Assembly: GCA_900322215.1 (NCBI GenBank)
Contig: ONYW01000004.1
Location: 1,015 to 65,014, forward strand
DNA length: 64,000 nucleotides
Direction of reading: 5' to 3'
From: an uncultured Eubacteriales bacterium
Lineage (GTDB): Bacteria > Bacillota > Clostridia > Christensenellales > CAG-917
The notes under the pieces were generated by a model. The model saw nothing but the letters and a program-made list of their open reading frames with translations. It made no database searches and was not told the DNA's origin. The translations under genes and the position numbers were made by a program. Positions 2,915 to 56,652 of this stretch are shown here, piece by piece (positions within the stretch are counted from its first letter, which is position 1; the number at the start of each line of letters is the position of its first letter).

Positions 2915-3409
2915 TTATTCTATTTGATTCAAATCCATGCAATAAGCGCGTACGCTTTGTTCTTCGTCAGTGCAAATGCAGACGTGGTAGTCGTCAAAGA
3001 CGTCAAAGTGTTCAAAGTGCTTGTCGGTCGGAAGACTTTCGCGGATAGAGGCTATACCCTCGCCCGTGAATTTGACGTAGCTCTCTCTTTCCGTCCACTT
3101 TTCAAAGAACTCCTGCTCATCCTCGGCTTCTATAAACTTGAACTTTGCAAAGTCAATTTCGCGCACCTTTTCGATATCGACACCTATCGGCGAATAGGAT
3201 ATGCCGACGACGATGACGCCGTGCGAGTGCGAGAGGTTGAAATGCACCTCGTCCGTATCGAAGCGAGGTTTTTTGCCCTCCGCCCTTATGATTTGCACCT
3301 TCTCGGGCAGTTCGTTGCCGAGCGAGGTCATAATGTTTTTATAGTGTGAGTAGCAGTAGAGGACAAACTTGTCGCTGTCCACTTCTCCCTGCGCGAAAAA
3401 CAGTATCAT
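2915..3409 (-). CDS. 4-prime-phosphopantetheinyl transferase (Sfp-type, short)
   Basis: Motifs GKKPRF, FNLSHSHG, GVDIE and WTERESYVKFTG. The start overlaps the coaX stop (ATGA). Confidence 0.8.
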   Translation of the reverse strand: MILFFAQGEVDSDKFVLYCYSHYKNIMTSLGNELPEKVQIIRAEGKKPRFDTDEVHFNLSHSHGVIVVGISYSPIGVDIEKVREIDFAKFKFIEAEDEQEFFEKWTERESYVKFTGEGIASIRESLPTDKHFEHFDVFDDYHVCICTDEEQSVRAYCMDLNQIE

Positions 3410-4191
3410 AATCCTTTTGAGAGGTCGTAAACGTATTTGAGACCTTTGAGCGCGAGCGCGCGGTCTACAACGTCCAAAATGTCAGGCTCGGTGTTCTCGA
3501 CGAGTTCGGAAAGGCCGCCTGTCGCAACCACCTTTGCTCCCTTCATTTCGGGCAGTGCCTTATACTTTTCAAGCATATACTTAACAAGTCCGGTATAACC
3601 GTAGATTATACCGCTTTGCATACACGTCTTTGTGGAAGTGCCCACTATGCTTGCGGGCGGAGTGAGTTCTATTCTCGGGAGTTTCGCCGCCGTCGTGACG
3701 AGCGATTCGGTCGCGGTCTTTATGCCGGGCGCGATCGCTCCGCCGATGTATACTCCGTCTTTCGTCACAAGGTTGAAAGTCGTTGCGGAGCCGAAGTCCA
3801 CCACGATGACAGGCCCGCCGTAGAGGTGATATGCGGCAGCCGCCCCGACCATTCTGTCCGTGCCGAGTTCCGCAGGGTTGTCATATCTAAGGCTTATGCC
3901 GAGTTTCGTCTCGTGCGTGACGGTCAGCGGATTCTTGCCCGTGTAGAATCTGCACATGTGCTCTATCGTATAGTTGAGCGCAGGCGCCACCGACGACATA
4001 ACGCACGCCTCGACGTCCTCAAAGCTCACGCCCTTTTGACGGAGCAGGTCGTAGATCACCATGCCGTATTCGTCGGCAGTCTTGCTCGCCGCCGTCGACA
4101 CACGCCAGGACGCGACAAGTTCCTCTCCGTCAAACGCCCCGATCTTTATATTCGTATTTCCAATATCAAGTGTAAGTATCATGGTTTTCAA
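3406..4191 (-). CDS. coaX: Type III pantothenate kinase
   Basis: N-terminus LTLDIGNTNIKIGAFDG, an ASKHA fold pattern, and DRALALKGL near the C-terminus. Confidence 0.9.
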   Translation of the reverse strand: MKTMILTLDIGNTNIKIGAFDGEELVASWRVSTAASKTADEYGMVIYDLLRQKGVSFEDVEACVMSSVAPALNYTIEHMCRFYTGKNPLTVTHETKLGISLRYDNPAELGTDRMVGAAAAYHLYGGPVIVVDFGSATTFNLVTKDGVYIGGAIAPGIKTATESLVTTAAKLPRIELTPPASIVGTSTKTCMQSGIIYGYTGLVKYMLEKYKALPEMKGAKVVATGGLSELVENTEPDILDVVDRALALKGLKYVYDLSKGL

Positions 4192-4304
4192 CCACCTTGT
4201 TATTTCTTTGATGTTTCAAACAGCCGTGCGCCTTTCTCCTTTTCACGCACGCACCGCTCAATTTTTTATTATACCAAATCTTAAATGGATTATCAACAAA
4301 TATT

Positions 4305-4751
4305 TTAATTCGCAAATAGAATTGCAATAGTGCAGACAAACGAATATATATCAAATAGTAGCGTTGGCAAAAAGATGAGAGCGAGAGTCACGTCTTTTGT
4401 GAGAAAGCGGACAAAGAGAATATAAGAAAAGGCAAGCGCAAACGTCATCGCGACAAAAGCAAACAACAGGTTTTTGAGTGTGAAAAACGCTATGACAAAG
4501 AGAACGCAGGACGCGCCGAGAAGCGCAAAGAAGAGCATGGACGGAAAAATATGTTTGTGTTCGACAAGCCTAGTGATAGATAAAATCGAGGACAAATAAC
4601 TCACGACCACAAACCCGCTGAAAAATCCGCCTGATAGCACAAACGCAGGTTTTGCGAGCATATAATACCACTTAAAGTCCGTTTTGAAGAAATACGAGCA
4701 TAGCCCCGCGACGATGAGCGTCGCAAAGACCGCAACAACTAAGCCTATCAT
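4305..4751 (-). CDS. Multi-pass membrane protein, possibly TspO/MBR-like
   Basis: Start taken at the internal Met (MIGLVVAVF, cat at 4749-4751). About 5 hydrophobic helices. FKWYYMLAKPAF resembles the TspO WYxxLxKPxW motif, but the Trp content is low. Confidence 0.4.
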   Translation of the reverse strand: MIGLVVAVFATLIVAGLCSYFFKTDFKWYYMLAKPAFVLSGGFFSGFVVVSYLSSILSITRLVEHKHIFPSMLFFALLGASCVLFVIAFFTLKNLLFAFVAMTFALAFSYILFVRFLTKDVTLALIFLPTLLFDIYSFVCTIAILFAN

Positions 4752-4861
4752 TCGCTTTAAGTGTTCCACACAAAAATATATTATCAATTCGCATTTTGTA
4801 TCACCAAAATTTTGCGACTTGCGTATGGTAAAGTAGCAAACCAAAATATAGGAGGTACATA

Positions 4862-5056
4862 ATGAATTTCTTTACAAACGGAACTGGCAACGGCTGCGGC
4901 TGTGGCACTTGTGACATCATCTATCTCTTGCTGCTCTTGAACTGCATGGGCGGCATGAACTTCTGCGGCACAAACGGATGCGACATCATTTGGCTCATCC
5001 TCATTCTCAACTGCTTCTGCGGTGGCAACAACAACATCGGATGCGGTTGCAAATAA
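4862..5056 (+). CDS. Cys/Gly-rich small protein with an internal duplication (function unknown)
   Basis: GGAGG at 4851-4855, 6 nt before the ATG. 64 aa with 10 Cys and 13 Gly. Two similar units: GTCDIIYLLLLLNCMGG and NGCDIIWLILILNCFCGG. A plus-strand terminator lies at 5269-5297. Confidence 0.6.
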   Translation: MNFFTNGTGNGCGCGTCDIIYLLLLLNCMGGMNFCGTNGCDIIWLILILNCFCGGNNNIGCGCK

Positions 5057-5180
5057 AACGGCGTGATTGAGCGACCTGCTGTGTTATCGCGCCTTGTCTG
5101 TTCAACCGTGTACGCCAATGTACACTGGGTTGCCCATCCAAAGCGCAATGCCTTGCATCTCATCTCAATCACACCGTTTT
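5055..5180 (+). repeat. Copy 1 of a roughly 125-nt structured repeat family
   Basis: Shares the boxes GAGCGACCTGC..TGT and CCTTGCATCTCATCTCA with 22564-22690 and 55696-55819. Outer arms AAAACGGcGTGATTGAG / CTCAATCACaCCGTTTT pair with each other. Internal hairpin GTGTAC-gccaat-GTACAC. Confidence 0.75.
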
Positions 5181-5268
5181 ACAAAAAGCAATTAGCCACA
5201 AACAGTGCTTGATGGCACGCACTGTGTGCGGGAAGTTTATCAATCTGTCTACACTCGTAGAAGAACAA

Positions 5269-5297
5269 GGGCGATGCCACTCGGCACCGCCCTTTTT
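5269..5297 (+). terminator. Intrinsic terminator for the small-peptide transcript
   Basis: GGGCGATGCC-actc-GGCACCGCCC followed by TTTTT. Confidence 0.7.
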
Positions 5298-5326
5298 AAC
5301 TTACGTTTAACTTTTACATCAAACGC

Positions 5327-6475
5327 TTATCTTTCTCCATTATTATAATTTTCTATTAGCGCATTTAACATATCTGAATCAAAAACAATCTCACTGCCAT
5401 CTGTGTATTCAATGTGTATATAGTTAATCCCTATTTTTGAAATAGAACTGTTGTACCAATAATTCTGAGCTTTTGCCTCTTTTGCTTCTCCTGATGCTAT
5501 TGGACCCGTCATTTTGACTGGCCTAACTCCAGAACCTCTAACCTCACAATATACTTCGTCTCCTACCGCATTTTTAGCTGCAAATCCTACATGAAAGTAC
5601 TTAATTGTTTTAGAACTTTTATTCTTAATTCCCATAGTCACATCTACTCCGCCAACAGAATTTGGTTTGCTTCTCACAAGTTTAGTTATAGAGAGAATTG
5701 ACCTAACCTGTTGTCTAATTTGTTCTTTCACTGCCTTCTCTTGATATGATTTATAGAGTTGTCTTTCACTATCGCTAATGCTTTTGATGTATTGTCCATC
5801 ATATAAATTTAATCTAGTGCCAGAAGTGCTAGACGAATTGCTATATACTCTTATAAACTCAGTTTTGCCGTCTTTTAAACCTAAGTCTACGACCAATCCA
5901 TCACACACAATCAAAATTGTTTCTATACCGTTTTCTTTCCACCCATAAGAAGAATCATCAATTTTATCGAATCCGACTTTCTTCAAATTTGCTATTACAT
6001 CATTAAGTTGACTATCATTAATATCAACATGTTGTTGTATAAGCACTCTATTTTTCTCATCAACTGTATATGATGGATTAGAGCCACCGCTAATAACGAA
6101 CTTTTTTGTTGACGTGACTATGTTTCCATCTTTTGTTTGTGCATGAATTTTTAAAACGCCATTATATTTTGCCTCAACTTTATATGAGATTTTACCTTCT
6201 TCCTTTTTCCCTATTGTAATTTCTGCAATCTTCGGGTTGTCGCAAACTATCTCTATGTCTTTAGAATTATAATTTGCTGGCTGAATATTTATATAGCCCT
6301 CATACTCGTCTCCATACCAACCAAACAAACCATGAAAGCCAAGTTTTTCTTCTGAAAGCGAATCAAATTCCATGCTTGTAATCGGATCTCCATCACTAAA
6401 ATCACATGCGCACAATCCAATTAAACAGCTGACTATTATCAAAATACTAACAAATATTAAAACTAATTTCTTCAT
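5327..6475 (-). CDS. Hypothetical surface lipoprotein on an AT-rich segment
   Basis: Signal peptide plus a Cys-containing lipobox (IGLCAC). Visibly more AT-rich than the flanks. I recognise no family motif. Confidence 0.6.
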   Translation of the reverse strand: MKKLVLIFVSILIIVSCLIGLCACDFSDGDPITSMEFDSLSEEKLGFHGLFGWYGDEYEGYINIQPANYNSKDIEIVCDNPKIAEITIGKKEEGKISYKVEAKYNGVLKIHAQTKDGNIVTSTKKFVISGGSNPSYTVDEKNRVLIQQHVDINDSQLNDVIANLKKVGFDKIDDSSYGWKENGIETILIVCDGLVVDLGLKDGKTEFIRVYSNSSSTSGTRLNLYDGQYIKSISDSERQLYKSYQEKAVKEQIRQQVRSILSITKLVRSKPNSVGGVDVTMGIKNKSSKTIKYFHVGFAAKNAVGDEVYCEVRGSGVRPVKMTGPIASGEAKEAKAQNYWYNSSISKIGINYIHIEYTDGSEIVFDSDMLNALIENYNNGER

Positions 6476-6508
6476 TTGCTCTCTCCTTTAATATATAGCA
6501 ATATTATA

Positions 6509-6555
6509 AACTAACTAATGGTTAGTTGTCAATATAAAGTCTAACTATTGGTTAT
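6509..6555. promoter_or_regulatory. Two candidate operator half-palindromes in the divergent promoter region
   Basis: AACTAACtaatgGTTAGTT at 6509-6527 and the related CTAACTATTGGTTAT at 6541-6555, between the lipoprotein gene and the XRE gene. Confidence 0.4.
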
Positions 6556-6585
6556 AGAATAAATCCATAAGGAGATACTTGGCTT

Positions 6586-6792
6586 ATGGATAATAGAATT
6601 AAGGAAAGATTGGCGGAAGAGATAAAACTCAGCGGGCTGACGACAGTTGAAATTGCCAAGCGAGTGGGCGTGTCTCCTGAAATGATAACGCAGTACAAGA
6701 CGACGAAAAAACTGCCGAAACTCGACACTTTTGCAAAACTTTGCGAGGTGCTTGACCTGTCGGCAGACGACATTTTGGGACTGAAAAAATGA
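6586..6792 (+). CDS. XRE-family helix-turn-helix transcriptional regulator
   Basis: 68 aa. HTH_3 pattern LSGLTTVEIAKRVGVSPEMITQYKTTKKLPKLDTFAKLCEVLDLSADDILG. AAGGAG RBS. Confidence 0.85.
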   Translation: MDNRIKERLAEEIKLSGLTTVEIAKRVGVSPEMITQYKTTKKLPKLDTFAKLCEVLDLSADDILGLKK

Positions 6793-6794
6793 AA

Positions 6795-6820
6795 AGACCC
6801 CAGTGGCGGGTCTTTTTTTC
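6795..6820 (+). terminator. Intrinsic terminator after the XRE gene
   Basis: AGACCC..GCGGGTCT imperfect stem followed by T7. Confidence 0.6.
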
Positions 6821-7032
6821 TTTTATTGAACACTACACTAACAAACCCAAAATCCAAGTCATGTCATGACAAAACAATCTACATTCACGCCTTATATAAT
6901 CCTTCCCCTTGAGGGGAGGCTAATTTCCTGCCAATAGTGCGGTTTTGTTTGACTTTATTTTTGCAATCATTTATATTTATAAAACAAAATATAATTGGTG
7001 CACTATTCCAAGTGCATGCAAGGAGAATTATT

Positions 7033-8418
7033 ATGGCAGAACTAACAATGGAAAAAATTGTTGCGCTTGCAAAGAATCGCGGTTTTGTGTATCCGGGTAG
7101 CGAAATCTACGGCGGACTCTCAAACTCTTGGGACTTCGGTCCTCTCGGCGTGGCGCTCAAAAACAATATCAAAGCCGCGTGGTGGAAGAAATTCGTCGTT
7201 GAAAATCCTTACAACGTCGGCATTGACAGCGCTATCATCATGAACCCGACGACCTGGCAAGCGAGTGGACATATCGGCGGTTTTTCCGATCCGCTTATGG
7301 ACTGCAAAGTGTGCAGATCTCGTCACCGCGCGGACAACCTCATCGAAGACTATATGGCAAAGAAAGGCATAGAGGAAAACATCGCAGGTTGGACAAACGA
7401 GCAGATGGAAAAGTATATTCAAGACAACAAGATCCCCTGCCCTGTTTGCGGAAACAGCGACTTTACGGGCGTTAGAAAATTCAACCTCATGTTCAAGACG
7501 TTCATCGGCGTCACGGAGGACACGACTTCGACCGTCTATCTCCGCCCCGAAACGGCACAAGGTATCTTTGTCAACTTCAAGAACGTCCAACGCACCACAA
7601 GAAAGAAAATCCCGTTCGGCATCGGTCAAATAGGCAAGAGTTTCAGAAACGAAATCACCCCGGGCAACTTCATCTTCCGCATCCGCGAATTCGAGCAAAT
7701 GGAACTTGAATTTTTCTGCAAGCCGGGCACCGACCTCGAATGGTTCAATTATTGGAAGAACTACTGCCACAAATGGCTCCTCGACCTCGGCATGAGAGAC
7801 GACAGACTTCGCCTTCGCGACCACGAGCAAGAGGAACTCGCATTCTACTCCAAGGCGACGACGGACTTTGAATACAAATTCCCGTTCGGTTGGGGCGAAC
7901 TTTGGGGCGTCGCAGACCGCACGGACTATGACCTCAATCAACACATCAAGACGAGCGGAAAGGACCTCTCCTACCAAGACCCCGTCACAAACGAAAAGTA
8001 CGTGCCGTACGTCATCGAGCCGTCCCTCGGTGCTGACCGCGTGCTCCTCGCTTTCCTTTGCAACGCATACGACGAAGAGCAAGTCGGCGAAAACGACACG
8101 AGAGTCGTCCTCCACTTCCACCCTGCCCTCGCTCCTGTCAAGGTTGCCGTTCTTCCGCTTCAAAAGCAACTCAACGAGAAAGCGGAAGAAATCTATGCCG
8201 AACTCTGCAAGCACTTCGCTTGCGACTTCGACGGCTCAGCGTCCATCGGCAAGAGATACCGCCGTCAAGACGAGATCGGCACGCCGTTCTGCGTCACGGT
8301 CGACTTCGACTCACTTGAAGACGGTTGCGTGACAGTCCGCGAGCGCGATTCTATGGCGCAAGTGAGACTCCCGATCGACAGCCTCGTCTCCTACTTTGAA
8401 GAGCAACTCAAATTTTAA
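7033..8418 (+). CDS. glyQS: Glycine--tRNA ligase (homodimeric GlyQS type)
   Basis: Start moved to [28 protein letters not shown], with an AGGAGA RBS at 7021-7026. Class II motifs [25 protein letters not shown] and GADR. Confidence 0.92.
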
Positions 8419-22358: not shown

Positions 22359-22563
22359 AGCATTATTCTAAATAATGCACAACAAAAATTGATGACTGTT
22401 TTTGTCTATTTTAGGCTTTTTTGAGTATACACACTTCGTGTGTTTAATATTATTGATGGTTGAAATAGAAAAATAAAGAAATATCTTGATATATAAAACT
22501 CGTCTAAAACCGCTCAGGTTGGATGAAGAGCGCGGAAAAGCCCGCACTCAGGCAACATACTAT

Positions 22564-22690
22564 AAAACTGCGTGATTGAGATGAGATGCTAGGAAACAAA
22601 AAAAATCACACCGCCCAATGTACATAAACGTACATGACGGTGTGTATTTTTTGTAGTTGACAACGCAGGTCGCTCAATCACGACAGTTTT
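22564..22690 (-). repeat. Copy 2 of the roughly 125-nt structured repeat family
   Basis: Same boxes as 5055-5180, on the opposite strand. Outer arms AAAACTGtCGTGATTGAG / CTCAATCACGCAGTTTT. Internal ATGTAC-gtttat-GTACAT hairpin. Inner stem ACACACCG/CGGTGTG followed by T8. Confidence 0.75.
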
Positions 22691-23676
22691 ACGCCGAGCA
22701 TATCGGAGAGCAGGTTCTTATCGTCAAAGAACTTCGCACCGCCGATGGCGACTGCGTTTTCGATGTCGTCGAGCGGGGTAACAGGAAGTTCCAAAGCCTG
22801 CTCGATATAGTCGATGAGTCCCGGAATGTGGAGAGAACCGCCGCTTATGAAGATACCCTTGCGAAGGATCTCGGCAGAGAGTTCGGGCGGAGTCTGGTTG
22901 AGCACGGACATGATGACTTCGATTATGTCGTCAACGAGCGGAATAACCGCGTTGCGCATGCCCTCGGCCGTCACGAAGAGCGAACGAGGCGTGCCGTCCT
23001 TTCCGCCGCCGCTGACAGCATAACTGCCCTCGTCGTTGAGATAGAAGGAGAGCGCGGACTTTTTGAGTTTTTCCATCGTAAAGTCGCCGATTTTTATGCC
23101 GTAACCTTGGTAGAATTCGTCTATTATCGCATTGTTGAACGCGTCGCCCGCGATATTCACCGTGCAACCCGTTGCGATGCCGTGATTTGTGACTGCCGCA
23201 ATTTCCGTCTTTCCGCCGCCGATGTCCACGAACAGTCCGCCGACCGAGCCCGTGTAGGCAAGAAGGGAGAGCGGAGACTCAACGAGCGTGATTTCGCTCA
23301 TGCCCGCCCTAAGACAACACTTTTCAACCGCGCGCCTGTCCGAATTTGAAGAAGACGAGCAAATAGAAACGATAGCCTTGACTCTCGGTTTGATAAAAGT
23401 CTGCGGCAAAATACGCTTCAAAAAGTGTTCGAGGAGCATCGTTGCCATCTCTTCGTCGACGATTATGCCTTCCTTTATCGGAGAGATGATCTTCGCACCG
23501 CCGAGAGAGCCGTTCATAATGCTCTCCGCGCGGTAGCCCGCCTCTCGGATTTCGAGTTTGTTGCGGTTTTGAGTGGCAATAGCAATGGCAGGCTCGCGAA
23601 GCACAAGCCCTATGCCCTTTTGGTATATGGTGATAAATTTACTGCCGAGGTCGACAGAAAGTTCAATGAACGCCAT
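22678..23676 (-). CDS. mreB: Divergent MreB/Mbl-like actin homologue
   Basis: Start at MAFIELSVDLGS, which overlaps maf by 14 nt. Also REPAIAIA, ISPIKEGIIVDEEMATMLLEHF, FVDIGGGKTEIA and ISGGSLHIPGL. No mreC or mreD follows. Confidence 0.75.
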   Translation of the reverse strand: MAFIELSVDLGSKFITIYQKGIGLVLREPAIAIATQNRNKLEIREAGYRAESIMNGSLGGAKIISPIKEGIIVDEEMATMLLEHFLKRILPQTFIKPRVKAIVSICSSSSNSDRRAVEKCCLRAGMSEITLVESPLSLLAYTGSVGGLFVDIGGGKTEIAAVTNHGIATGCTVNIAGDAFNNAIIDEFYQGYGIKIGDFTMEKLKKSALSFYLNDEGSYAVSGGGKDGTPRSLFVTAEGMRNAVIPLVDDIIEVIMSVLNQTPPELSAEILRKGIFISGGSLHIPGLIDYIEQALELPVTPLDDIENAVAIGGAKFFDDKNLLSDMLGVKLS

Positions 23677-32411: not shown

Positions 32412-35400
32412 ATGAACAAAAAGAAATTCTTAGTTTTAGCAATTTTGATGGTTGCTCTCATCGTTCTCTCCTCCGCGCTCTTCGTCGCGTGCAACAAGAA
32501 CGACGCACAAACTGACTCCGACACTCCGTCGGAGGAATCCGAAACCATCGAACCAACCGAAGGTCTGCTGATCGCAAACAGCGACTTCAAGGTTGTCAGC
32601 ACAGACACGGAATCTTATCCGCGCACCATCACAAGTTGGTCAGGCGCAAAGACCTACTCTTCAGGCTCCTACGAGTCAGGCGTTATTGCAGGTGCGATAA
32701 GCCTCGAAGAGGCGCTCTATGCAGCCAACAAATCCACTTGGAAAGATACGGACGATAAGGGCTTGTATGCAAAGCTTACCGCAGGCGGCAGATACGGCGA
32801 CGACGACAAGATCAAGCACGCCCTCATGATCTATATGCCGAAGGCGGACGAGTCGACAGACAGCGCAAAGTACGGTCCTACCGCATACGGCTACACTTCC
32901 GCATCCTTCACGATCGCAGCGCACGCCTACTACAAACTTTCCGTGGACGTCCTCACCTATGACATCGCGGGCGATTCTTCCAACTCTTCAAACGTTCCGG
33001 GCGCAAGGATTTACCTCTCGTCCGACACGTATGCGGTGTTTGACAAAATCGACACGAAGGGCGAATGGAAGACGTACGAACTCTTCATCGAAGGTTCGGC
33101 AAGCGCGTCATCTTCACTCACGCTCAACCTCTCCCTCGGCAACTACTCGAGCACGTACCGCGACGGCTTGACCACGGGTTATGCCTTCTTTGACAACGTC
33201 GTGCTTGAAAAACTCGACAACGCAACCGCGGCAAGCGACTACGCTGCGGCAGTTGAGAGAGAACTCAATGACAACACGTACGTTCAAACAAACACACTCA
33301 AAATGCCGAACGGACGCTTTGACTTTGGTACGACGACGCTCTCTTCGACCTCCGCACCGTCCAACTGGTCGGCTGTGACGGGCAACAAGTCGGAGGACGA
33401 TCCCGCTCCGACATCTCTCGGTTACAACGCCGTCATCGACGCAAGCAAATTCTCCGAAAAATACAACACTTATTCTTCGACGTACTATCTCAAAGCCGAC
33501 GCGGATTCTGACGCTACAAGTTATGTTCCCGCAAAAGAACTCTCCGCAATAGAGACTCTCATCGGTACGCTTCCCGCAAACTCGATCGGCACGAACGTCT
33601 TTATGCTCTCTCAACAACTTATGACTGCTTCCGGTATCAGATCGTCAAAGCAAATCACCATTGAGAGAAACAAAGTTTATGCCATCTCCGCAAACGTCTT
33701 CACCTACGGTGTACACGGCGCAGGCGCATCCCTCGTTCTCACAGGCGCGGACGGCAAGGATATCACGATCAAGGGTATCTCCGCCAACGTCTCCGACAAC
33801 GCGCTCATCGGCTCTACGTCTATCAGTGCGGACGACGGCTACGTCATCGACTCCAACGTCCCGGGTGCTTCCACAATGGGTTGGAAGACCTACACCTTCT
33901 ACGTGATCGGCGACGACTACAAAGATTACAACTACAACGTGGCGATTTGGCTCGGCACTGACGGCACGAGCAAGAACACGGCTGTTTCCTACAAGAGCTA
34001 TTCAAGCGGATCCGGTTCTTCCAACTCCACGACTTACACGGCAAACGGCACGTTTGCAAACGGCTGGGTGTTCGTCGACAGCGTCTCCCTTGCTGAAATC
34101 GCGGAAAGCGATATTCCTGCGGCAACTGACGGCGTCGAATATGCAGGCGCGGATCAAATCCTCGACCTCACGGCGGCAGGCAAGTCCGACTATGTCGGCA
34201 TTTGCGTAGACCTCTCGACAGAGAATATCTTTAGCAACGCGGGCAACGGCAACGACCTCACTATCGGCAACGCGGGCACGGGCACTCAAATCGAGGGCAA
34301 CGGCACGACGCAAGCGGGCGTTCCGAACGGCTGGAAATCCAACTTTGACGTGACAAGTTCTTCATCCCCTGTCATCTCGGGCGGCATCGTCACGGACGGT
34401 CTTGTCCAAATCGATACGGAAGACAGCTTCACGCAAAGTTCAGGCAAAGGCACCTACCCCGGTATGCCATACGACATCGAAACGAAGACGGCATATATGA
34501 TGCACGCTTCAAAAGACGCATACTACGAAGTCGAAACCGCTCCGTTTGAAATCTCGGCAAACGGTTTCTATCGTCTCAGCCTCTGGGTGAAGACGGTTGA
34601 CGTCAAGTCTACGTCAGGCGTCTACGTCTACCTCCTCGACGAGGAAGGCACAACCGTTTCGAGTTTCACCGCTGTCAACACAAAGGATTCAAACGAATAC
34701 ACTTCCGACTGGCGCGAACTCACTTTCGTCATCCGCGGAAGCAAAGAAGCGGCTGAAAACTTCCACTTGAAGTTCACGCTCGGCACGGGCGACCGCTGGA
34801 CGGCAAACACTCTCACAAGCGGTGCGGCATTCGTGTCCAACATGAGCCTTACTTCAATAAATTACAAGACGTTCTCAGGCACGACGACGGGCACGTACGT
34901 CAAGTCGATCGACAGGACCTCCTCTTCGACCTACACGTTCACGAACGGCAGTTTTGACGAGTACAAACTCGACGACGACAAGCTCGATCCGACAAAGGCT
35001 CTCAAAGATCAAAGCGTTCTTGCAAATCCGACGAGTTGGACGATAAGCGACGATACGCTCAAGCCGAATTCTTCCGATTCAAAACTCGTAGCGGGCGTCT
35101 TCGCTCTTGAAAACCAAGACAGAAACCTCTACTTCAACCATAGCGCACAAACGAGCGCGGCATTCTCACTCGTTTCCGCAGGCGACTTCGACGCATTCTA
35201 CGGCGACGAATCCGCAGACACTTATCTCTCAAGCGCAAACCTTGACACGATAGGCGGCCCGAACGTTCTTGCCATCGCAAGCAACGACTCGGCGGAAAAA
35301 TATGCAGTCGGTTATGCTTCGTCCAAGTTCACCCTCTCCTCAAACGGCATCTACTCAGTCAGCGTGTTCGTCAAAGGTATGGGCGCTGAAAAGGCGAGCA

Positions 35401-36725
35401 TCTACCTCTCCGGCGAAGCGGCAACTTCTGTCGAAAGCGGTATGTTCACAATTGGAAATCCGTCTTCCGACTGGACAAAATACACCTTCTTCGTCAAAGT
35501 CGGTCCGACAAGCGTTTCACTCAGCCTCAACCTCTGGCTCGGCTATGACAACAAACTCGTCGGCCTCGACAGTGCGGACGACGCAAAATCCGCAGGCGCA
35601 GTCTTCTTTGACAACATCATCAAGAAGTCCGTTTCCGAAAGCGACTTTGCCGCTGCAGAGGAAGCAATAGAAGCAGGCGACACAAAGACCAAGGCTATCT
35701 CCTTTGTCACAGACAGTTTCGACTCCTTGTCCGACACGGTTGAATCGAGAGCACAACTCTCCTCCGCAAACGGCTGGAGCGGTGCGGCAGGAACGGATCA
35801 AACCTCTTCCAACACGAAGTCGGGCGTCATCTATGCCGACTCCAACTTCTACTCGGTGAACGCTGTCGACGGCACGGACTATGTCGGAATCCTCGGCAAG
35901 GCGTACGTCATCGACGACATCACCCTCACCCCTGAAGAGGCTGAAGGCAAGACGGAAGAAGAACAACTCGCTTTGAGAGAAGAAAAACTCCTTGCTCTCA
36001 AAAAGGCGAATTGGCTCCCTGTCTCTTCCCTTACGGCGCACAGCGGAAAGAACCTCCTCGTCATCAACAACATGGAGAAATCCGCTTACACCTACACAAG
36101 CAACACGCGTACGCTTGATGCGACGAGTTTCTACAAGGTCAGCGTTTGGGCAAAGACGTTCGGCATGAACGACGACGCGGACTGCGGCGCGTATATCGAA
36201 CTCTATCTCGGCTCCGCAAACGAAACGGACAACCCGCTCGTCTTCAAAGCACAAGCGCAAGCGGAGTGGACGGAATATACGTTCTTTGTCAAGACTCTCT
36301 CAAAGAGCGTCACAAGTGTGACCGTAAAACTCGGTCTCGGTTCGGTCGTCAAGACGGACGACGCGACGACAGGTCTCACATCCGGCTATGCGTTCTTCGA
36401 TGACGTGACGCTTGAAAAGACGACGGAAGCCGAATACGAAGCGGCAAAAGAATCCGCATCGGCAACAGTCCTCGCTCGCGAAGTCAAAGAGGCGGAGGAA
36501 GAAGAGACCCCCGACACCCCGGACGATACGACGCCTGAAAAGAAATTCAACCTTGAATATCTCTGGTGGATGATTCCGACGATTATACTTGCCGTTCTCA
36601 TCATCATCGTTGTGATCGTGTTCCTCTTCAAGAAGATAAGAAAGCCACACAAGAAAGAGGCTTCAAACTCTTCCAAAGAGACGCTCGCAAAGAAGCGTTC
36701 AAGATATGACGACAACAAGGAATAA
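32412..36725 (+). CDS. 1437-aa envelope protein with five CBM4/9-like (jelly-roll) repeats, an N-terminal lipoprotein signal and a C-terminal TM anchor
   Basis: Lipobox LFVAC-NK. Five modules each open with YYKLSVDVLTYD / VYAISANVFTYG / FYRLSLWVKTVD / IYSVSVFVKGMG / FYKVSVWAKTFG. Each has a central W(K/T)xY(T/E)FF and closes with YAFFDNVVLEKL / WVFVDSVSLAEI / AAFVSNMSLTSI / AVFFDNIIKKSV / YAFFDDVTLEKT. C-terminus WWMIPTIILAVLIIIVVIVFLFKKIRK. The ORF itself is solid; the function call is weak. Confidence 0.6.
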   Translation: MNKKKFLVLAILMVALIVLSSALFVACNKNDAQTDSDTPSEESETIEPTEGLLIANSDFKVVSTDTESYPRTITSWSGAKTYSSGSYESGVIAGAISLEEALYAANKSTWKDTDDKGLYAKLTAGGRYGDDDKIKHALMIYMPKADESTDSAKYGPTAYGYTSASFTIAAHAYYKLSVDVLTYDIAGDSSNSSNVPGARIYLSSDTYAVFDKIDTKGEWKTYELFIEGSASASSSLTLNLSLGNYSSTYRDGLTTGYAFFDNVVLEKLDNATAASDYAAAVERELNDNTYVQTNTLKMPNGRFDFGTTTLSSTSAPSNWSAVTGNKSEDDPAPTSLGYNAVIDASKFSEKYNTYSSTYYLKADADSDATSYVPAKELSAIETLIGTLPANSIGTNVFMLSQQLMTASGIRSSKQITIERNKVYAISANVFTYGVHGAGASLVLTGADGKDITIKGISANVSDNALIGSTSISADDGYVIDSNVPGASTMGWKTYTFYVIGDDYKDYNYNVAIWLGTDGTSKNTAVSYKSYSSGSGSSNSTTYTANGTFANGWVFVDSVSLAEIAESDIPAATDGVEYAGADQILDLTAAGKSDYVGICVDLSTENIFSNAGNGNDLTIGNAGTGTQIEGNGTTQAGVPNGWKSNFDVTSSSSPVISGGIVTDGLVQIDTEDSFTQSSGKGTYPGMPYDIETKTAYMMHASKDAYYEVETAPFEISANGFYRLSLWVKTVDVKSTSGVYVYLLDEEGTTVSSFTAVNTKDSNEYTSDWRELTFVIRGSKEAAENFHLKFTLGTGDRWTANTLTSGAAFVSNMSLTSINYKTFSGTTTGTYVKSIDRTSSSTYTFTNGSFDEYKLDDDKLDPTKALKDQSVLANPTSWTISDDTLKPNSSDSKLVAGVFALENQDRNLYFNHSAQTSAAFSLVSAGDFDAFYGDESADTYLSSANLDTIGGPNVLAIASNDSAEKYAVGYASSKFTLSSNGIYSVSVFVKGMGAEKASIYLSGEAATSVESGMFTIGNPSSDWTKYTFFVKVGPTSVSLSLNLWLGYDNKLVGLDSADDAKSAGAVFFDNIIKKSVSESDFAAAEEAIEAGDTKTKAISFVTDSFDSLSDTVESRAQLSSANGWSGAAGTDQTSSNTKSGVIYADSNFYSVNAVDGTDYVGILGKAYVIDDITLTPEEAEGKTEEEQLALREEKLLALKKANWLPVSSLTAHSGKNLLVINNMEKSAYTYTSNTRTLDATSFYKVSVWAKTFGMNDDADCGAYIELYLGSANETDNPLVFKAQAQAEWTEYTFFVKTLSKSVTSVTVKLGLGSVVKTDDATTGLTSGYAFFDDVTLEKTTEAEYEAAKESASATVLAREVKEAEEEETPDTPDDTTPEKKFNLEYLWWMIPTIILAVLIIIVVIVFLFKKIRKPHKKEASNSSKETLAKKRSRYDDNKE

Positions 36726-36742
36726 TCTTTGCTAAAACAAAA

Positions 36743-36773
36743 AGCGTACGGTCCACACCGTACGCTTTTTTTA
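36743..36773 (+). terminator. Intrinsic terminator after the giant gene
   Basis: AGCGTACGG-tccaca-CCGTACGCT followed by T7. Confidence 0.8.
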
Positions 36774-36888
36774 TACACTTTGCGGAGCCATATACACCCC
36801 TGCGTATTGATTATTACAGCACAAATGCCGATGATATGCAAGTCTTTTATCTTATGAATATAACGCGAATATTCTCATACAATTTTGT

Positions 36889-52315: not shown

Positions 52316-52579
52316 CTTTACCTCCTATTATTTCCCGAGAACTGTCGCATTTGAAGTGGGAAGTTTCAAACGCCCTTTGATTGTCCCAAAAATCTGCTAC
52401 GCATATTTTCGGGAGCCCTTTGACGAAAAAAAATCGTCATTCCATGAGAGAAAAGACGAATCACAAGCAAAAACTCATATTCAACTTCACTCCTCGGCAA
52501 GCGGTATTTCACTTACGACTTTCGTCACTTGCTGTCTTTGGAACGCTACTATAATAATAAATTTACTTCGTAATGTCAA
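52316..52579 (-). promoter_or_regulatory. rplJ promoter plus a roughly 235-nt leader (candidate L10-leader attenuator)
   Basis: In minus sense, TTGACA (52579-52574), a 17-nt spacer, then TATTAT (52556-52551). The leader contains a short stem followed by a T8 run. L10-leader identity is inferred from position only. Confidence 0.45.
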
Positions 52580-52611
52580 ACGTTTTTGCGATATTGCGAA
52601 ATTTTTATCCT

Positions 52612-52647
52612 AAAAATCAACGGATAGGACGAAAACGCCCTATCCGT
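52612..52647 (-). terminator. Intrinsic terminator after the LRR protein gene
   Basis: In minus sense, ACGGATAGG-gcgttttcgt-CCTATCCGT followed by TGATTTTT. Confidence 0.7.
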
Positions 52648-52660
52648 TGTGTAGATTTTG

Positions 52661-54796
52661 TTATGATTTTGCGATGTCGCCATCTGTGCAATGAATGGCG
52701 TTTGTTCCTGTATTGGTGCTCCAGTTTGAGCCTTTTGAGATCGCCTTCCATTGCGATTTTGTGCCCTTATATGTTATGGATGTCAAACATCTGCAATTAT
52801 AGAAGGCATAACTTCCTATGCTTGTCACACTGTCTGGAATGGTAATGGATGTCAAGTCTGTGCAATCATTGAATGCATTACCTCCTATACTTGTAACGCT
52901 GTCCGGGATGGAAACGGATGTCAAACCGGTGCAACCACTGAATGCACCACTGCCTATGCTTGTCACACTATCTGGAATTATGACGGACGTCAAGCCTGTA
53001 AAATTATGAAATGCTTCAAAAGGTATTGCGTCTACCCATCCAAATTGTATACTATAATCCCCGCCTATCGGACCTGCTGTTGTCAAGCCGTTGCAATTTC
53101 GGAATGCCCAGAATCCTATGCTTGTCACACTGTCTGGAATGGTAATGGATGTCAAGCCTGTGCAATTATTGAATGCACAATCTCCTATACTTGTAACGCT
53201 GTCTGGGATAGTGATGGATGTCAAGCCTCTGCAATCATCAAATGCATAATCTCCTATGCTTGTAACGCTGTCTGGAATAACTGTGTTTTTGTATCCTGCG
53301 ATAAGCGTATTGCTTGCCGTTTCTATGATTGCATTACAGTCATTTCTTGAATCATATACTGTGTTCTTGCCATCTACGATGACGGATGTCAAGCCTGTGC
53401 AACCACTGAATGTACTCCAGTCTATGCTTGTAACGCTGCCGGGGATTGTAATGGACGTCAATCCACTGCATCCATAGAATGCATTACCGCCTATGCTTGT
53501 CACCCCATTGCCGATGGTGACGGATGTCAAACCTGTGCAACCATAGAATGCACTATGTCCTATGCTTGTAACGCTGTCCGGGATGGTGATTGATGTCAAA
53601 CCTGTGCAACCAAAGAATGCTTCTTCTCCTATGCTTGTAACACTGTCTGGGATATCATATTCTTTTAAATCTTTGTTGTTAAAAAACTCGCTATCTTTAA
53701 TCTTGGTTGCTGCGAATTTTGCATAAAGTGTAATATTTTCCAAAGAATCTGTGTCAATTTTGCTGACCAATGTTTCAAAAGTCGGCTCTAAATACCAACC
53801 TTCAAAAACATAATCAGTTTTTGACGCCTCTTTTAAGGTATATATGTTATCTTCAATTGTATATGAAGTAGGATTGGATCTGTTATTTTTGCCACCATTT
53901 AGGTTGTATGTGATTGTATATACAATTATTTCCCACTTTGCGAAAAATTCTTTGTCTCCTATTGATTCTTTAGGAACGGTTGTAATTGCGCTTCCATTCA
54001 AGTCTTCGTTGTCATACCAGCCTTTGAAAGTATAACCGTTTCTTGTCGGTGTTTGCAAGGCAATTTCTGCTCTTCCCGGCTTGTAAGATTCCCTATAAAT
54101 CCCTGTTGAGTTGTCTATGTTTCCGCCATTTAGATTGTAGGTTATAATATATTCTCCGATAATTGTTGGGACATTGACAGATATTTCACCAAAATCATTT
54201 TGTATGACAATCTCTACAGAATTTGAGTTTTCTGTATCACTGGCTTTTGTTGATATATAATAATCCTGTTCAATAATATAACTTCCGTCTGTGTATTCTG
54301 CCTTATATGTAACTTTACCCGTCTTTTTGCCCTTAGTTATACCGCCAGAAATCACAGTGAAATTATTTAATTCTTTATCTTGTTCATCTTCGGATTTGTG
54401 TTTTTTGTCAAAAATAACTTTGACAACTTTATCCGAATTGTCAAAATATATTTCCGTATACTCATACTCCATAGAAGCTTCTTTTTCTTCCAGCTTTTCA
54501 TATTCCGCGTCTATTTTATCTATATCGGCAAAACTGCTTGCGTTTTCAAGCTTTTTATCAAGTGCCTCATACTCTTCTTGCAAAGATTTATAATTCTTCC
54601 CATAGTAATATATGGTAGAACCGTTTTCTTCATCGGGATCTCCCATTGTCGCAAGAACAGTCTTTTTGTCATCTCCTAAATTAATCTTGCTTGCTTTTGA
54701 AGAATTTTTATTGCAACTAACTAAAACAAAACAAATTGCAAATAAACATATTAAAATGCTCAGTAACAAAACGTTTTTCTTTTTCATAGACTGCAC
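52661..54796 (-). CDS. BspA-type leucine-rich-repeat surface lipoprotein with two Listeria-Bacteroides (Flg_new) repeats
   Basis: Lipobox LVSC-NK. Two copies of YxITYNLNGG...Y(T/V)F(K/E)GWY. At least 9 units of IPDSVTSIGxxAFxxCTGLTSITI. AT-rich. Confidence 0.85.
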   Translation of the reverse strand: MQSMKKKNVLLLSILICLFAICFVLVSCNKNSSKASKINLGDDKKTVLATMGDPDEENGSTIYYYGKNYKSLQEEYEALDKKLENASSFADIDKIDAEYEKLEEKEASMEYEYTEIYFDNSDKVVKVIFDKKHKSEDEQDKELNNFTVISGGITKGKKTGKVTYKAEYTDGSYIIEQDYYISTKASDTENSNSVEIVIQNDFGEISVNVPTIIGEYIITYNLNGGNIDNSTGIYRESYKPGRAEIALQTPTRNGYTFKGWYDNEDLNGSAITTVPKESIGDKEFFAKWEIIVYTITYNLNGGKNNRSNPTSYTIEDNIYTLKEASKTDYVFEGWYLEPTFETLVSKIDTDSLENITLYAKFAATKIKDSEFFNNKDLKEYDIPDSVTSIGEEAFFGCTGLTSITIPDSVTSIGHSAFYGCTGLTSVTIGNGVTSIGGNAFYGCSGLTSITIPGSVTSIDWSTFSGCTGLTSVIVDGKNTVYDSRNDCNAIIETASNTLIAGYKNTVIPDSVTSIGDYAFDDCRGLTSITIPDSVTSIGDCAFNNCTGLTSITIPDSVTSIGFWAFRNCNGLTTAGPIGGDYSIQFGWVDAIPFEAFHNFTGLTSVIIPDSVTSIGSGAFSGCTGLTSVSIPDSVTSIGGNAFNDCTDLTSITIPDSVTSIGSYAFYNCRCLTSITYKGTKSQWKAISKGSNWSTNTGTNAIHCTDGDIAKS

Positions 54797-54879
54797 CTCT
54801 TTAAATATCAGCTTAATGTTTTTTATTTATTTTATCTTTGGCTTAAATTTTTTGAAATATTCATCTATCATAATTTTAT

Positions 54880-54924
54880 TATAGAATATTCTATATGTCA
54901 AGACAAAGCCATAGAATAATCTAT
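54880..54924. promoter_or_regulatory. Two candidate operators in the divergent promoter region
   Basis: Perfect 16-bp palindrome TATAGAATATTCTATA at 54880-54895 and the related ATAGAATAATCTAT at 54911-54924, just upstream of the XRE gene. Confidence 0.45.
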
Positions 54925-54933
54925 ACTTAGAGT

Positions 54934-55152
54934 ATGGAAGAAATGGAATTTAGAGAGATTTTGGAAGAATTTTTGATTGAAAAAGGGCTTACGCAAACGG
55001 CGTTTGCGGAGAAAATCGGCGTAAAGCAAAGCCAGGTCAGCGAATGGCTCAAAGGCAAGGCAAAACCCGGTTATGACATTCTCAAACGCATGGCTCTTGC
55101 TTTCAACGTCTCCGCCGATTACTTCCTTGGAATAAAAGAATTTTCAATATAA
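54934..55152 (+). CDS. XRE-family helix-turn-helix transcriptional regulator
   Basis: KGLTQTAFAEKIGVKQSQVSEWLKGKAKPGYDILKRMALAFNVSADYFLG. Confidence 0.85.
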   Translation: MEEMEFREILEEFLIEKGLTQTAFAEKIGVKQSQVSEWLKGKAKPGYDILKRMALAFNVSADYFLGIKEFSI

Positions 55153-55177
55153 AAAGCACTCGTTTGAGTGCTTTTGT

Positions 55178-55612
55178 TTACTTCCCGGAGTAGAACTCGG
55201 TGGTGGTTTGGTTGGATTGGATGAGGACGGAACTTTGGTGGAAGACCTGTATCATCTCATCTGCGGCGGAGTGGACATCGTCGAGCGTCGTGTCGCTGAG
55301 GTAGATGACGAGCGTGTATTCGTTGTAGACGGTGTCGCCGTCTTTCCAACCGCCGTGCGCCTCTTGGATGGTGTAACCGCCGAATTTGTCAAGCAGGATC
55401 TCTTTGAGTTTGGCTTGCGCTTCTTCAGGTGTAAAGACCGGCGTGTTTGTGTCCTTGTCGTTTGTACCGAGGTACAGCACGTATTGGACGTCCTGTTTAG
55501 GTGCTTCCGTCTTGCCACCAAGCGACGTGCAAACTATCGCGATTGCCGCGACTGACAATCCGATTGCCACCGCACATATAATGCTGACTGCAATAATAAG
55601 TTTTTTGTTCAT
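55178..55612 (-). CDS. Membrane-anchored small protein, DUF3574-like
   Basis: N-terminal TM helix. YVLYLGTNDKDTNTPVFTPEEAQAKLKEILLDKFGGYTIQEAHGGWKD resembles the DUF3574 LYFGxxxxxGxxVSxxEWxxF...GxTVxxAxGQW pattern. Confidence 0.4.
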   Translation of the reverse strand: MNKKLIIAVSIICAVAIGLSVAAIAIVCTSLGGKTEAPKQDVQYVLYLGTNDKDTNTPVFTPEEAQAKLKEILLDKFGGYTIQEAHGGWKDGDTVYNEYTLVIYLSDTTLDDVHSAADEMIQVFHQSSVLIQSNQTTTEFYSGK

Positions 55613-55695
55613 TTTATGCCTCTATATGCTTTATATACACTTATTATAATATGATAGCGCAAAGAAATGCAAACAAAAAATAATCGCATGATTCT

Positions 55696-55819
55696 AAAAA
55701 CACACGAGTGAGATGAGATGCTAGGAAGGGCGATTTGTTTGAAAGGAGCGTACTTGAGCGTACGTGACTGCACAAAAAAAGCGACCTGACAACGCAGGTC
55801 GCTCTCTCGTGTGTTTTTT
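55696..55819 (-). repeat. Copy 3 of the roughly 125-nt structured repeat family
   Basis: Boxes GAGCGACCTGCGTTGTCA and CCTAGCATCTCATCTCA. Outer arms AAAAAACACACGAGaGAG / CTCaCTCGTGTGTTTTT. Internal CGTAC-gctcaa-GTACG hairpin. Contains a GCGACCTG-cgttgt-CAGGTCGC stem followed by T7 (55774-55802). Confidence 0.7.
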
Positions 55820-55962
55820 AGTTCATGAGCGGAATGTAAATAAAAAATCGATATTTAGATGCATAACAAGAAAAAACCCACTTTCACAAGCCCTAATGTA
55901 CATGACGTACATGAGATTGGGAAAGTGGGATTTGCCGAAGTTAGGCGCTAAATAGCGCTTTT

Positions 55963-56652
55963 TTATTGCATTCTGTAGACCATCTTAATGGACGGTCCCA
56001 TCGTCGATGCAATGTAAATTGAGCGGAAATATACACCCTTTGCCGCTGCCGGTTTTGCTTTGACGAGTGCTTCCATGAGGGTGCGGAGGTTCTCGGAGAG
56101 TTTCTCTGCGCCGAAGGACGCTTTGCCAAACGGAACGTGGCAGATAGCTTGTTTGTCAACTCTGTACTCAACTTTACCTGCTTTGATGTCCTTGATAGCC
56201 TTTGCGATATCCATAGAGACTGTGCCGCTCTTTGGGTTTGGCATCAAGCCTTTCGGGCCGAGGACTTTACCGAGACGACCGACAACGCCCATCATATCCG
56301 GGGTTGTGACGATGACGTCATAGTCAAACCAGTTTTCTTGTTGAATCTTTTGAACCATTTCGTCTCCGCCGACGAAATCCGCACCGGCTGCTTGGGCTTC
56401 GTCAGCCTTTGCACCCTTTGTGATTGCGAGGACGCGGACAGTTTTACCTGTACCGTTTGGAAGAACGACAACGCCTCTGACTTGTTGGTCTGCGTGGCGT
56501 GGGTCGATACCGAGTTTTACGTGCAATTCTATTGTTTCATCGAATTTGGACTTTGCTGTTTCGACTGCGAGAGCGACTGCTTCTTCGAGTTCGTATGCTT
56601 TGGTCTTGTCGATGAGTTTTTTCGAATCAATATAATGTTTACCGCGTTGCAT
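55963..56652 (-). CDS. rplA: 50S ribosomal protein L1
   Basis: [24 protein letters not shown]. Confidence 0.93.

Follow-up and report, generated by a model that had tools for sequence, protein, structure and literature searches.

The 64,000-nt stretch of contig ONYW01000004.1 analysed here (hereafter, the window), from an uncultured Eubacteriales bacterium, carries several copies of a repeat of roughly 125 nt at the ends of genes. Three copies had been predicted from the letters alone, and all three are present at the expected sites, with ends that could be refined to the first and last paired base of the outer stem (Table 1). The outer arms and GTAC hairpins quoted in that original prediction are correct, and all three copies carry both conserved boxes, GAGCGACCTGC and GCATCTCATCTCA, without a mismatch, the GCATCTCATCTCA box being unique to them within the window even at two mismatches. 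Each of the three folds as a single long imperfect hairpin (z = -5.6 to -8.7 versus dinucleotide shuffles). The count of three stands for these copies but not for the window total, which also includes a fourth, diverged copy (60 bits, E = 3e-15, with a covariance model built from 13 copies) and one 3' half copy; a model search of the window with filters off yielded no further copies, only plain terminators. The stop of the gene upstream of copy 2 had been placed at GCGTAA, which is wrong, as the open reading frame (ORF) enters the arm of the repeat and ends at the TGA of GTGATTGAG.

Table 1. Copies of the repeat and adjoining features in the window.
Feature	Position	Strand	Remarks
64-aa Cys/Gly-rich ORF	4862..5056	+	stop codon makes up the opening base pairs of copy 1
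Copy 1, subfamily C	5054..5181	+	box 1 5069-5079; GTAC hairpin 5108-5125; box 2 5155-5167
G+C-rich terminator hairpin	5267..5294	.	~85 nt past copy 1, between convergent genes
3' half copy (GCGCTCTTCATCCAACCTGAGCGGTTTTAG)	22505..22540	-	behind copy 2
Copy 2, subfamily D	22563..22691	-	box 1 22665-22675; box 2 22577-22589
mreB-like gene, 332 aa	22678..23676	-	TGA stop within the outer 5' arm of copy 2
Copy 3, subfamily B	55695..55820	-	box 1 55794-55804; box 2 55709-55721
Copy 4, subfamily E	55841..55965	-	diverged boxes TTTAGCGCCTAAC / GTTATGCATCTAAA
rplA (ribosomal protein L1)	55963..56652	-	stop codon opens copy 4

The outer stem of copy 1 opens with the TAA stop codon (5054-5056) of a 64-aa ORF, copy 4 opens on the TAA of rplA (55963-55965), and copy 3 follows in tandem, 20 nt behind copy 4. 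The interiors differ among the copies: the inner stem of copy 2 is bordered by an A run and a U run, the inner stem of copy 4 with its U6 looks like a sense-strand terminator, and box 1 of copy 3 has an alternative local pairing (AGCGACCUG/CAGGUCGCU plus U7). Among the compared loci beyond the window, which carry labels of the style L001-L049, L011 holds a copy orthologous to copy 1 and L045 one orthologous to copy 2. The half copy at 22505-22540 is the remnant of an older copy, of a subfamily other than that of copy 2.

Scans of GTDB species genomes, metagenomes and viral contigs for the pattern GAGCGACCTGC-N60-90-GCATCTCATCTCA, together with a covariance model, brought the family to ~40 copies overall. 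Both exact boxes were found at 11 loci in GTDB species genomes (four in the Clostridia metagenome-assembled genome (MAG) RGIG7896 from buffalo rumen, four in Christensenella sp. UBA1260, one in Clostridia SUG3072 and two in MAGs labelled Saccharibacteria) and at 11 further loci in metagenomes. A covariance-model search, which had been suggested as a check, recovered more copies: the R1 model found 35 in 199 kb, ~14 of them extra ones without exact boxes. The hosts are rumen Christensenellales-like MAGs plus one very distant bacterium. Locus L011 (UBA1260) is syntenic with window positions 2973-8413 at ~80% identity, which makes the source of the window a related organism of Christensenellales type. 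The ribosomal protein S7 encoded beside the copy at L002 is only 53% identical to the S7 of the window, so that the exact boxes occur in a very distant bacterium as well. No copy was found in viral contigs, plasmids or phages. Where the repeat follows rplA or the mreB-like gene or precedes minD, short-read contigs from several samples break off at the element or within it (L025-L028, L033, L035, L037, L038, L046), and the family thus repeatedly interrupts the assembly of these genomes.

The first impression, that the repeat is not recognisable as any named RNA or MITE (miniature inverted-repeat transposable element), was borne out by an Rfam comparison and a check against insertion sequences (ISs) and MITEs, neither of which gave a match. 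Across the whole window, Rfam 15 at gathering thresholds reported only an L10 leader, and at E <= 10 copies 1, 3 and 4 and one A-type copy returned noise only (<21 bits). The box sequences gave only chance primer matches in full-text literature, and a literature keyword search found no description of repeats that overlap stop codons. The family is previously undescribed, whereas its general kind, small structured interspersed repeats co-transcribed with genes, is already known.

The comparison places the repeat in register with the stop codon of the gene in front of it. Position was scored on 32 copies, and in ~27 of these a co-oriented upstream ORF ends in the 5' outer arm or within 10 nt of it, which upholds the predicted fixed orientation relative to the upstream gene. 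In 17-19 copies the stem opens with the stop codon itself (TAA, and TAG in one case), which makes up its first base pairs, in eight the ORF continues into the arm as far as the TGA of GTGATTGAG or TTGAGCG, and in two it stops 7-10 nt ahead of the stem, the exceptions being two degenerate copies and those that come second in a tandem pair. By our estimate, of 32 copies placed at random fewer than one would fall on such a target of ~28 nt per ~1-kb gene on one strand. The rule is kept in distant members with unrelated arms, at L002 (rpsG), L016 (tuf), L021 (glgP) and L010, and the upstream genes are unrelated housekeeping genes (encoding GAPDH, Era, S7, PFK, PhoH, RlmL, L1 and an MreB-like protein). 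Of 27 downstream genes, 20 share this orientation, about as usual for adjacent genes. Given this co-oriented location directly on the stop codon, a copy would be transcribed as the first ~125 nt of a 3' untranslated region (UTR) or intercistronic spacer. An orientation linked to replication, through an IS200/IS605-like process or avoidance of hairpins on the lagging template, was also considered: the minus strand is the leading strand over the whole window by GC skew, and copy 1, which lies on the plus strand, is oriented with its small plus-strand gene and not with replication, a single case (n=1) that contradicts the idea.

The consensus over 29 full copies is one hairpin. From its base inward come an outer stem of 16-26 bp, which pairs in most copies and constitutes the terminal inverted repeats, an irregular helix made by the two boxes, an internal loop, an inner stem specific to each subfamily, and an apical GUAC-N5-7-GUAC hairpin. 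The irregular helix, GAGCGACCUGC opposite GCAUCUCAUCUCA, is nearly invariant, and its boxes, 11 and 13 nt long, are not mutual complements. Across the 29 copies, standard pairs fill 92.2% of 928 cells versus 75.0% after shuffling (0 of 500 shuffles as high), 153 cells carry double changes versus 41 in shuffles, and double changes occur in 23 of 32 pairs; slid controls came to 24-41%. The claim that two helices are kept by paired changes, first made from three copies, thus holds on 29-35 copies and also within orthologous ones. Diverged copies alter even the boxes with compensation (UUGAG/CUCAA becoming UUUAG/CUAAA, UUUGG/CCAAA, GAUUG/CAAUC or UUUUG/CAAAA) and retain the box core GCG(A)...YCAUCY. 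This covariation supports the consensus structure, and a DNA palindrome would give the same pattern. By-eye comparison with the K-turn, hammerhead, hairpin ribozyme and box C/D motifs produced no fit; tandem GA is not invariant, and the non-bulged strand has four extra bases.

Resident copies are conserved well beyond the synonymous sites of the genes they follow. The element is 81% identical between the window and L045, 86% between L007 and L018, and 92-94% between L012 and L022, where 4-fold sites of the upstream gene are 58%, 55% and 47% identical, respectively; the baseline from alignment shuffles is 47-48%, and the downstream flank of the window/L045 pair stands at 46%. Orthologs have private features in common, such as a 1-nt deletion in both L012 and L022, so their similarity is due to descent and not to re-insertion. 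Between copy 2 and its counterpart in L045, stems have been rebuilt with compensation (GAUU/AAUC to GAGC/GCUC, and the inner stem too) while the boxes remain identical. From the difference in identity it follows that resident copies are under purifying selection, on sequence as well as pairing, and nothing speaks more strongly against taking the family as purely parasitic.

The same repeats come and go at gene ends: copies are gained, lost, duplicated in tandem and truncated, and the family is an interspersed repeat, not a single-locus RNA gene. The end of the mreB-like gene, whose product has a C-terminus G[VI][KR]Lx* conserved to ~50% identity, is one such case. The site is filled by a D-type copy in the window and in L045 (93% protein identity to the window) and by an E-type copy opening on the TAA of the gene in L046 (82%), and it is empty in L039 (90%), L047 (82%), L041 (79%) and L043 (74%); the two types of fill imply at least two independent gains. 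In the empty L039 and L047 a normal terminator lies ~24-50 nt past the stop codon, and this native terminator has decayed in the filled lineages. The end of glgP shows three different fills, hence at least three independent gains. L001 lacks both of the copies found in L019 behind the same 492-aa gene, and a full copy in L001 is matched in L019 only by a 70-nt deletion derivative in reverse. At the site shared by copy 1 and L011 the interiors belong to different subfamilies, so replacement also occurs. Exact-protein look-ups with RplA and MinD gave, for identical proteins, either the same arrangement or a contig broken at the repeat. Empty sites were available only at 74-90% protein or ~80% DNA identity, too diverged for base-by-base junctions.

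Tandem copies, 3' halves and 5' halves are common in the family. L045 has four more 3' half units of two types behind its full copy (2240-2410), made up of a duplicated two-unit block plus one more, and the window retains a single unit at 22505-22540. Deletion derivatives of 58-70 nt, with the arms and parts of both boxes left, lie at L019 2030-2099 and L005 382-439, the former in reverse orientation and immediately upstream of a start codon. No target-site duplication (TSD) was detected: the best direct repeat in the flanks averaged 4.85 nt versus 4.77 nt for mismatched flank pairs, with duplication of an A run possible, and the only long flank repeat was a tandem array at L004. In that array (L004 2709-3026, Clostridia MAG SUG3072) a distant member is repeated with a period of 142 and units 97% identical; it lies upstream of an SPFH/band-7-like gene and reaches the contig end. 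A TA duplication in the style of IS630 or Correia elements does not fit, the base after the U run being A in ~11 copies and G in ~12. In ~250 kb of loci no ORF flanked by a 5' half and a 3' half was found as a parent IS, nor was a partner transposase. Three intergenic direct repeats of ~37 nt at L015 2790-2880 (TTCGAAGACGAGCCCGTAAAACTAC…) are not related to the family.

The outer arms have two kinds of origin. Most conform to a family pattern, TAAAAC-YG-YRYGA-TTGAG, that varies mainly by transitions and recurs behind unrelated genes; these arms belong to the element. At several loci, by contrast, the 5' arm is coding sequence, the last codons of the host gene, and the 3' arm is an inverted copy of it. 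In copy 2 the 5' arm, GTAAAACTGTCGTGA, codes for VKLS*, with which the product of the mreB-like gene ends. At the glgP end in L049 the stem continues upstream of the stop by 12 perfect pairs, AAACCTGTGCTT with AAGCACAGGTTT. L021 has a newer copy that separates the last sense codon of glgP from the old TAA; the 3' arm of this copy, TCAGAGCACCGG, repeats CCG GTG CTC TGA in inverted form, and the fossil 3' extension of an older copy remains downstream. Homologs of glgP end in RIWGLKP[IV][KL]*, which identifies the arm codons as native, and ORF length is the same in filled and empty alleles at the mreB-like gene, glgP and phoH. In some gain events, then, the 3' arm is an inverted copy of the last codons of the host, with no TSD. 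Such arms possibly reflect inverted copying of the upstream flank at insertion, or later extension of the palindrome by template switching. As for terminator-like features, the close family has AAAA/TTTT termini, a location 3' of coding sequences (CDSs) and a U run of 4-6 nt; subfamilies B, D and E have an internal hairpin on the sense strand followed by a run of U6-8; and the U run is missing in L010, L014, L015, L016 and L021.

A structured repeat behind genes is not unprecedented, and the nearest described analogue, going by description only, would be the SPRITE element of pneumococcus, which is ~105 bp long, has AAAA...TTTT termini and no established TSD, is enriched near CDS 3' ends, resembles a terminator and is thought to affect co-transcribed genes (PMC3049150). 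SPRITEs are enriched between convergent genes, and their terminal inverted repeats do not pair, unlike those of BOX and RUP (PMC3049150), whereas the present family lies mostly between co-directional genes (20/27), has paired ends (stem 17-26 bp), sits on the stop codon, carries two invariant non-complementary boxes and is under purifying selection. BOX/RUP, ERIC/IRU, Correia and bcr1 are likewise interspersed repeats, of 100-160 bp, with paired ends and co-transcription with neighbours; bcr1 has a predicted RNA structure with compensatory changes, and BOX a modular interior (PMC3184786; PMC3049150). BOX, RUP, Correia and bcr1 have TSDs and IS-like terminal repeats (PMC3184786; PMC3049150), in contrast to the present family, which has no TSD, and neither a start on the stop codon nor an arm of host codons is reported for BOX/RUP, ERIC/IRU, Correia or bcr1 in PMC3184786 or PMC3049150. 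Terminal inverted repeats without a TSD also distinguish the family from a classical MITE.

Further likenesses are partial. REP/BIME/REPIN sequences with their RAYT transposases are, like our repeat, extragenic palindromes at gene 3' ends, clustered and without TSDs, and REP/BIME have been proposed to be mRNA stabilisers or attenuators (PMC2817692). REPs are palindromes of 20-40 nt, and BIMEs alternate in orientation (PMC2817692), whereas the present unit measures ~125 nt, its tandem copies are direct and its boxes are not complementary to each other. Integron attC sites, imperfect palindromes (57-141 nt) whose ends are conserved and whose centre varies, resemble it in lying behind ORFs in one orientation, in having no TSD and in having one strand that folds better; they differ in that the R'' RYYYAAC and R' GTTRRRY sequences are absent here, the ends being TAAAAC...GTTTT(A/G), and in that our copies adjoin core genes (rplA, mreB-like, minD, tuf, rpsG) with no cassette array. 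Intrinsic (Rho-independent) terminators share the A run, stem and U run, a place after or overlapping the stop codon, and gene orientation; the present element, however, is a 125-nt hairpin with conserved internal loops, its U run, no longer than 4-6 nt, is lacking in distant members, and copies stand within operons, sometimes followed by a normal terminator.

On balance we think it probable that the family is a SPRITE/BOX/REP-like interspersed repeat of ~125 nt that is co-transcribed with its upstream gene and selected as an mRNA 3'-end structure. A copy would be transcribed with that gene as the beginning of the 3' UTR or intercistronic spacer, the transcript would fold into a long hairpin whose outer stem begins with the stop codon, and the terminating ribosome would open the base of that hairpin. 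The role may be that of a terminator or attenuator, a block to 3' exonucleases or a processing signal; perhaps the first applies in subfamilies B, D and E, with their internal hairpin and U run, and the others more generally. New copies arise repeatedly at gene ends, with older ones pushed downstream. A more specific version, to which we give only a minor chance, is a stop-codon RNA device in which the ribosome melts the hairpin base and so sets the fate of the mRNA 3' end, coupled to a stop-codon-precise, TSD-free mode of spread by an undescribed process. By that process the core may come to separate the last sense codon from the old stop, a TGA or TAA may be newly supplied, and the last codons of the host gene may be copied in inverted form as the 3' arm.

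Several observations weigh against the preferred 3'-end reading. Distant members without a 3' U run show that termination is not a function of the whole family, and a canonical terminator follows copy 1 separately (5267-5294), so that copy 1 is not the sole terminator-like structure at that gene end. Templated correction of quasi-palindromes at the DNA level, and not selection on RNA, could lie behind part of the paired changes. The argument for transcription of the sense strand is one from position, and folding points the other way: the strand complementary to the upstream gene, and thus to the 'sense' strand of the original prediction, is the more stable in 27 of 35 copies, by a mean of -6.2 and up to -22 kcal/mol. 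The outer stem folds better on the complementary strand in 20 of 25 copies (on the gene's strand in 5/25) and the interior in 16 of 25 (9/25), with subfamily A interiors favouring the gene's strand, and the box helix is worth -10.7 kcal/mol on the complementary strand versus -7.0 on the gene's strand. The complementary strand has 66 G.U pairs and the gene's strand 16, a difference that shrinks to 25 versus 16, indecisive for strand, when two fixed positions are left out, the box U.G pair (28 of 29 copies) and the G.U closing the apical stem (G.U in 13, A-U in nine and G-C in four). On the mRNA-sense strand these fixed pairs become C.A and A.C mismatches, and the internal loops, purine-rich with frequent tandem GA/GA on the complementary strand, are all pyrimidine. 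Position speaks for the gene's strand, thermodynamics and wobble pairs for the other.

This asymmetry is what commends the idea that the functional molecule is the complementary strand, whether an antisense or small RNA across the stop codon or a folded single-stranded DNA site of the attC or hairpin-recombinase type, the latter also agreeing with the one-way location after ORFs, the variable centre and the lack of a TSD. We hold it to be quite unlikely, as a scan downstream of the copies revealed no promoter for that strand, and none conserved; neither an antisense gene nor a single-stranded site has an evident need to point the same way as the upstream gene, the interiors of subfamily A are the more stable on the sense strand, and the ends (TAAAAC/GTTTTA) and core-gene, cassette-free surroundings depart from attC. 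Conservation of the boxes might instead suggest a catalytic or ligand-binding RNA, for example a new class of self-cleaving ribozyme with the internal loops as active core, given invariant 11- and 13-nt boxes between covarying helices in a multi-copy, strongly conserved element of very distant bacteria. That is very improbable for a single hairpin with neither junction nor pseudoknot, with no likeness to Rfam ribozyme or riboswitch models, and with boxes that vary by compensation in copies that are diverged but conserved.

Two other explanations treat the repeat as mobile DNA. It had been proposed that a mobile core inserts into the loops of existing terminator hairpins, with the outer arms as split host stems, and the arms do open on an A run, close on a U run and vary among copies. 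The data contradict this, and we give it next to no credence: arms behind unrelated genes share the family consensus and differ mostly by transitions, real terminators in these genomes look different, the native terminator of the mreB-like gene lies 24 nt downstream of the stop in empty relatives, neither split nor the site of insertion, and the arms that do derive from the host are last codons and not a terminator. Alternatively, the family may be selfish, non-autonomous mobile DNA with no host function, its palindrome kept at the DNA level by a mobilising enzyme or by templated correction and gene ends being merely tolerated sites. Copies are many, come and go, stand in tandem, are truncated and break short-read assemblies, the exact boxes beside an S7 of 53% identity suggest horizontal spread, and the wobble asymmetry outside the two fixed positions is as weak as a DNA palindrome would give. 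Yet neutral decay would be expected of such DNA, whereas orthologous copies retain 81-94% identity where 4-fold sites show 47-58%; tolerance by itself leaves unexplained a stem that starts exactly at the stop codon and a fixed orientation in an element with nearly symmetrical ends, and there is neither a TSD nor, in ~250 kb of loci, a partner transposase. We consider it unlikely, though not negligibly so, that selfish spread is the whole account.

Some features of the window stand apart from these questions. The 64-aa ORF at 4862-5056 has no Pfam match, abounds in Cys, Gly and hydrophobic residues and repeats itself internally (…GCGCGTCDIIYLLLLLNC… / …GTNGCDIIWLILILNCFCGG…, two repeats); it is also conserved in L011 and appears to resemble the YjcZ-type small sporulation proteins. 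The rplKA and rplJL clusters (52419-55612, minus strand) are set apart by a DUF3574-like 144-aa gene, an opposite-strand helix-turn-helix (HTH) gene and a ~710-aa Flg_new/LRR protein, and the L10 leader (RF00557, 71 bits) lies at 52419-52559. A terminator at 36736-36774 (+), AAAAAGCGTACGG-TCCACA-CCGTACGCTTTTTTT, shares a GCGTAC/GTACGC motif with the apical hairpin of the repeat and follows a 1437-aa ORF (32412-36725, +), presumably polC, judging by length only. The palindromes GGCC, CTAG and AGCT occur in the window at 0.14-0.26 of Markov expectation and CCGG at 0.45, a depletion that suggests avoidance under restriction-modification; GTAC is not avoided, and its sites are thus out as a signal of this kind.

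Small bacterial interspersed repeats are usually seen as decaying parasites tolerated behind genes. The present family looks instead like a spreading yet functional 3'-end element and not decaying junk DNA: use by the host is indicated by the stop-codon register in gene orientation, by invariant asymmetric boxes in distant bacteria and by conservation above synonymous sites. It is set off from known repeats by this register, the fixed orientation, the lack of a TSD, the asymmetric boxes, the host-codon arms, which hint at an unusual chemistry of insertion, and purifying selection. A practical effect is that the repeat breaks short-read assemblies of these genomes. If transcripts confirm it, the family would be a tractable example of how a mobile sequence can act as a standard module at the 3' ends of core genes, among them rplA, rpsG, tuf, mreB-like, gap and pfk, in an abundant uncultured rumen lineage.

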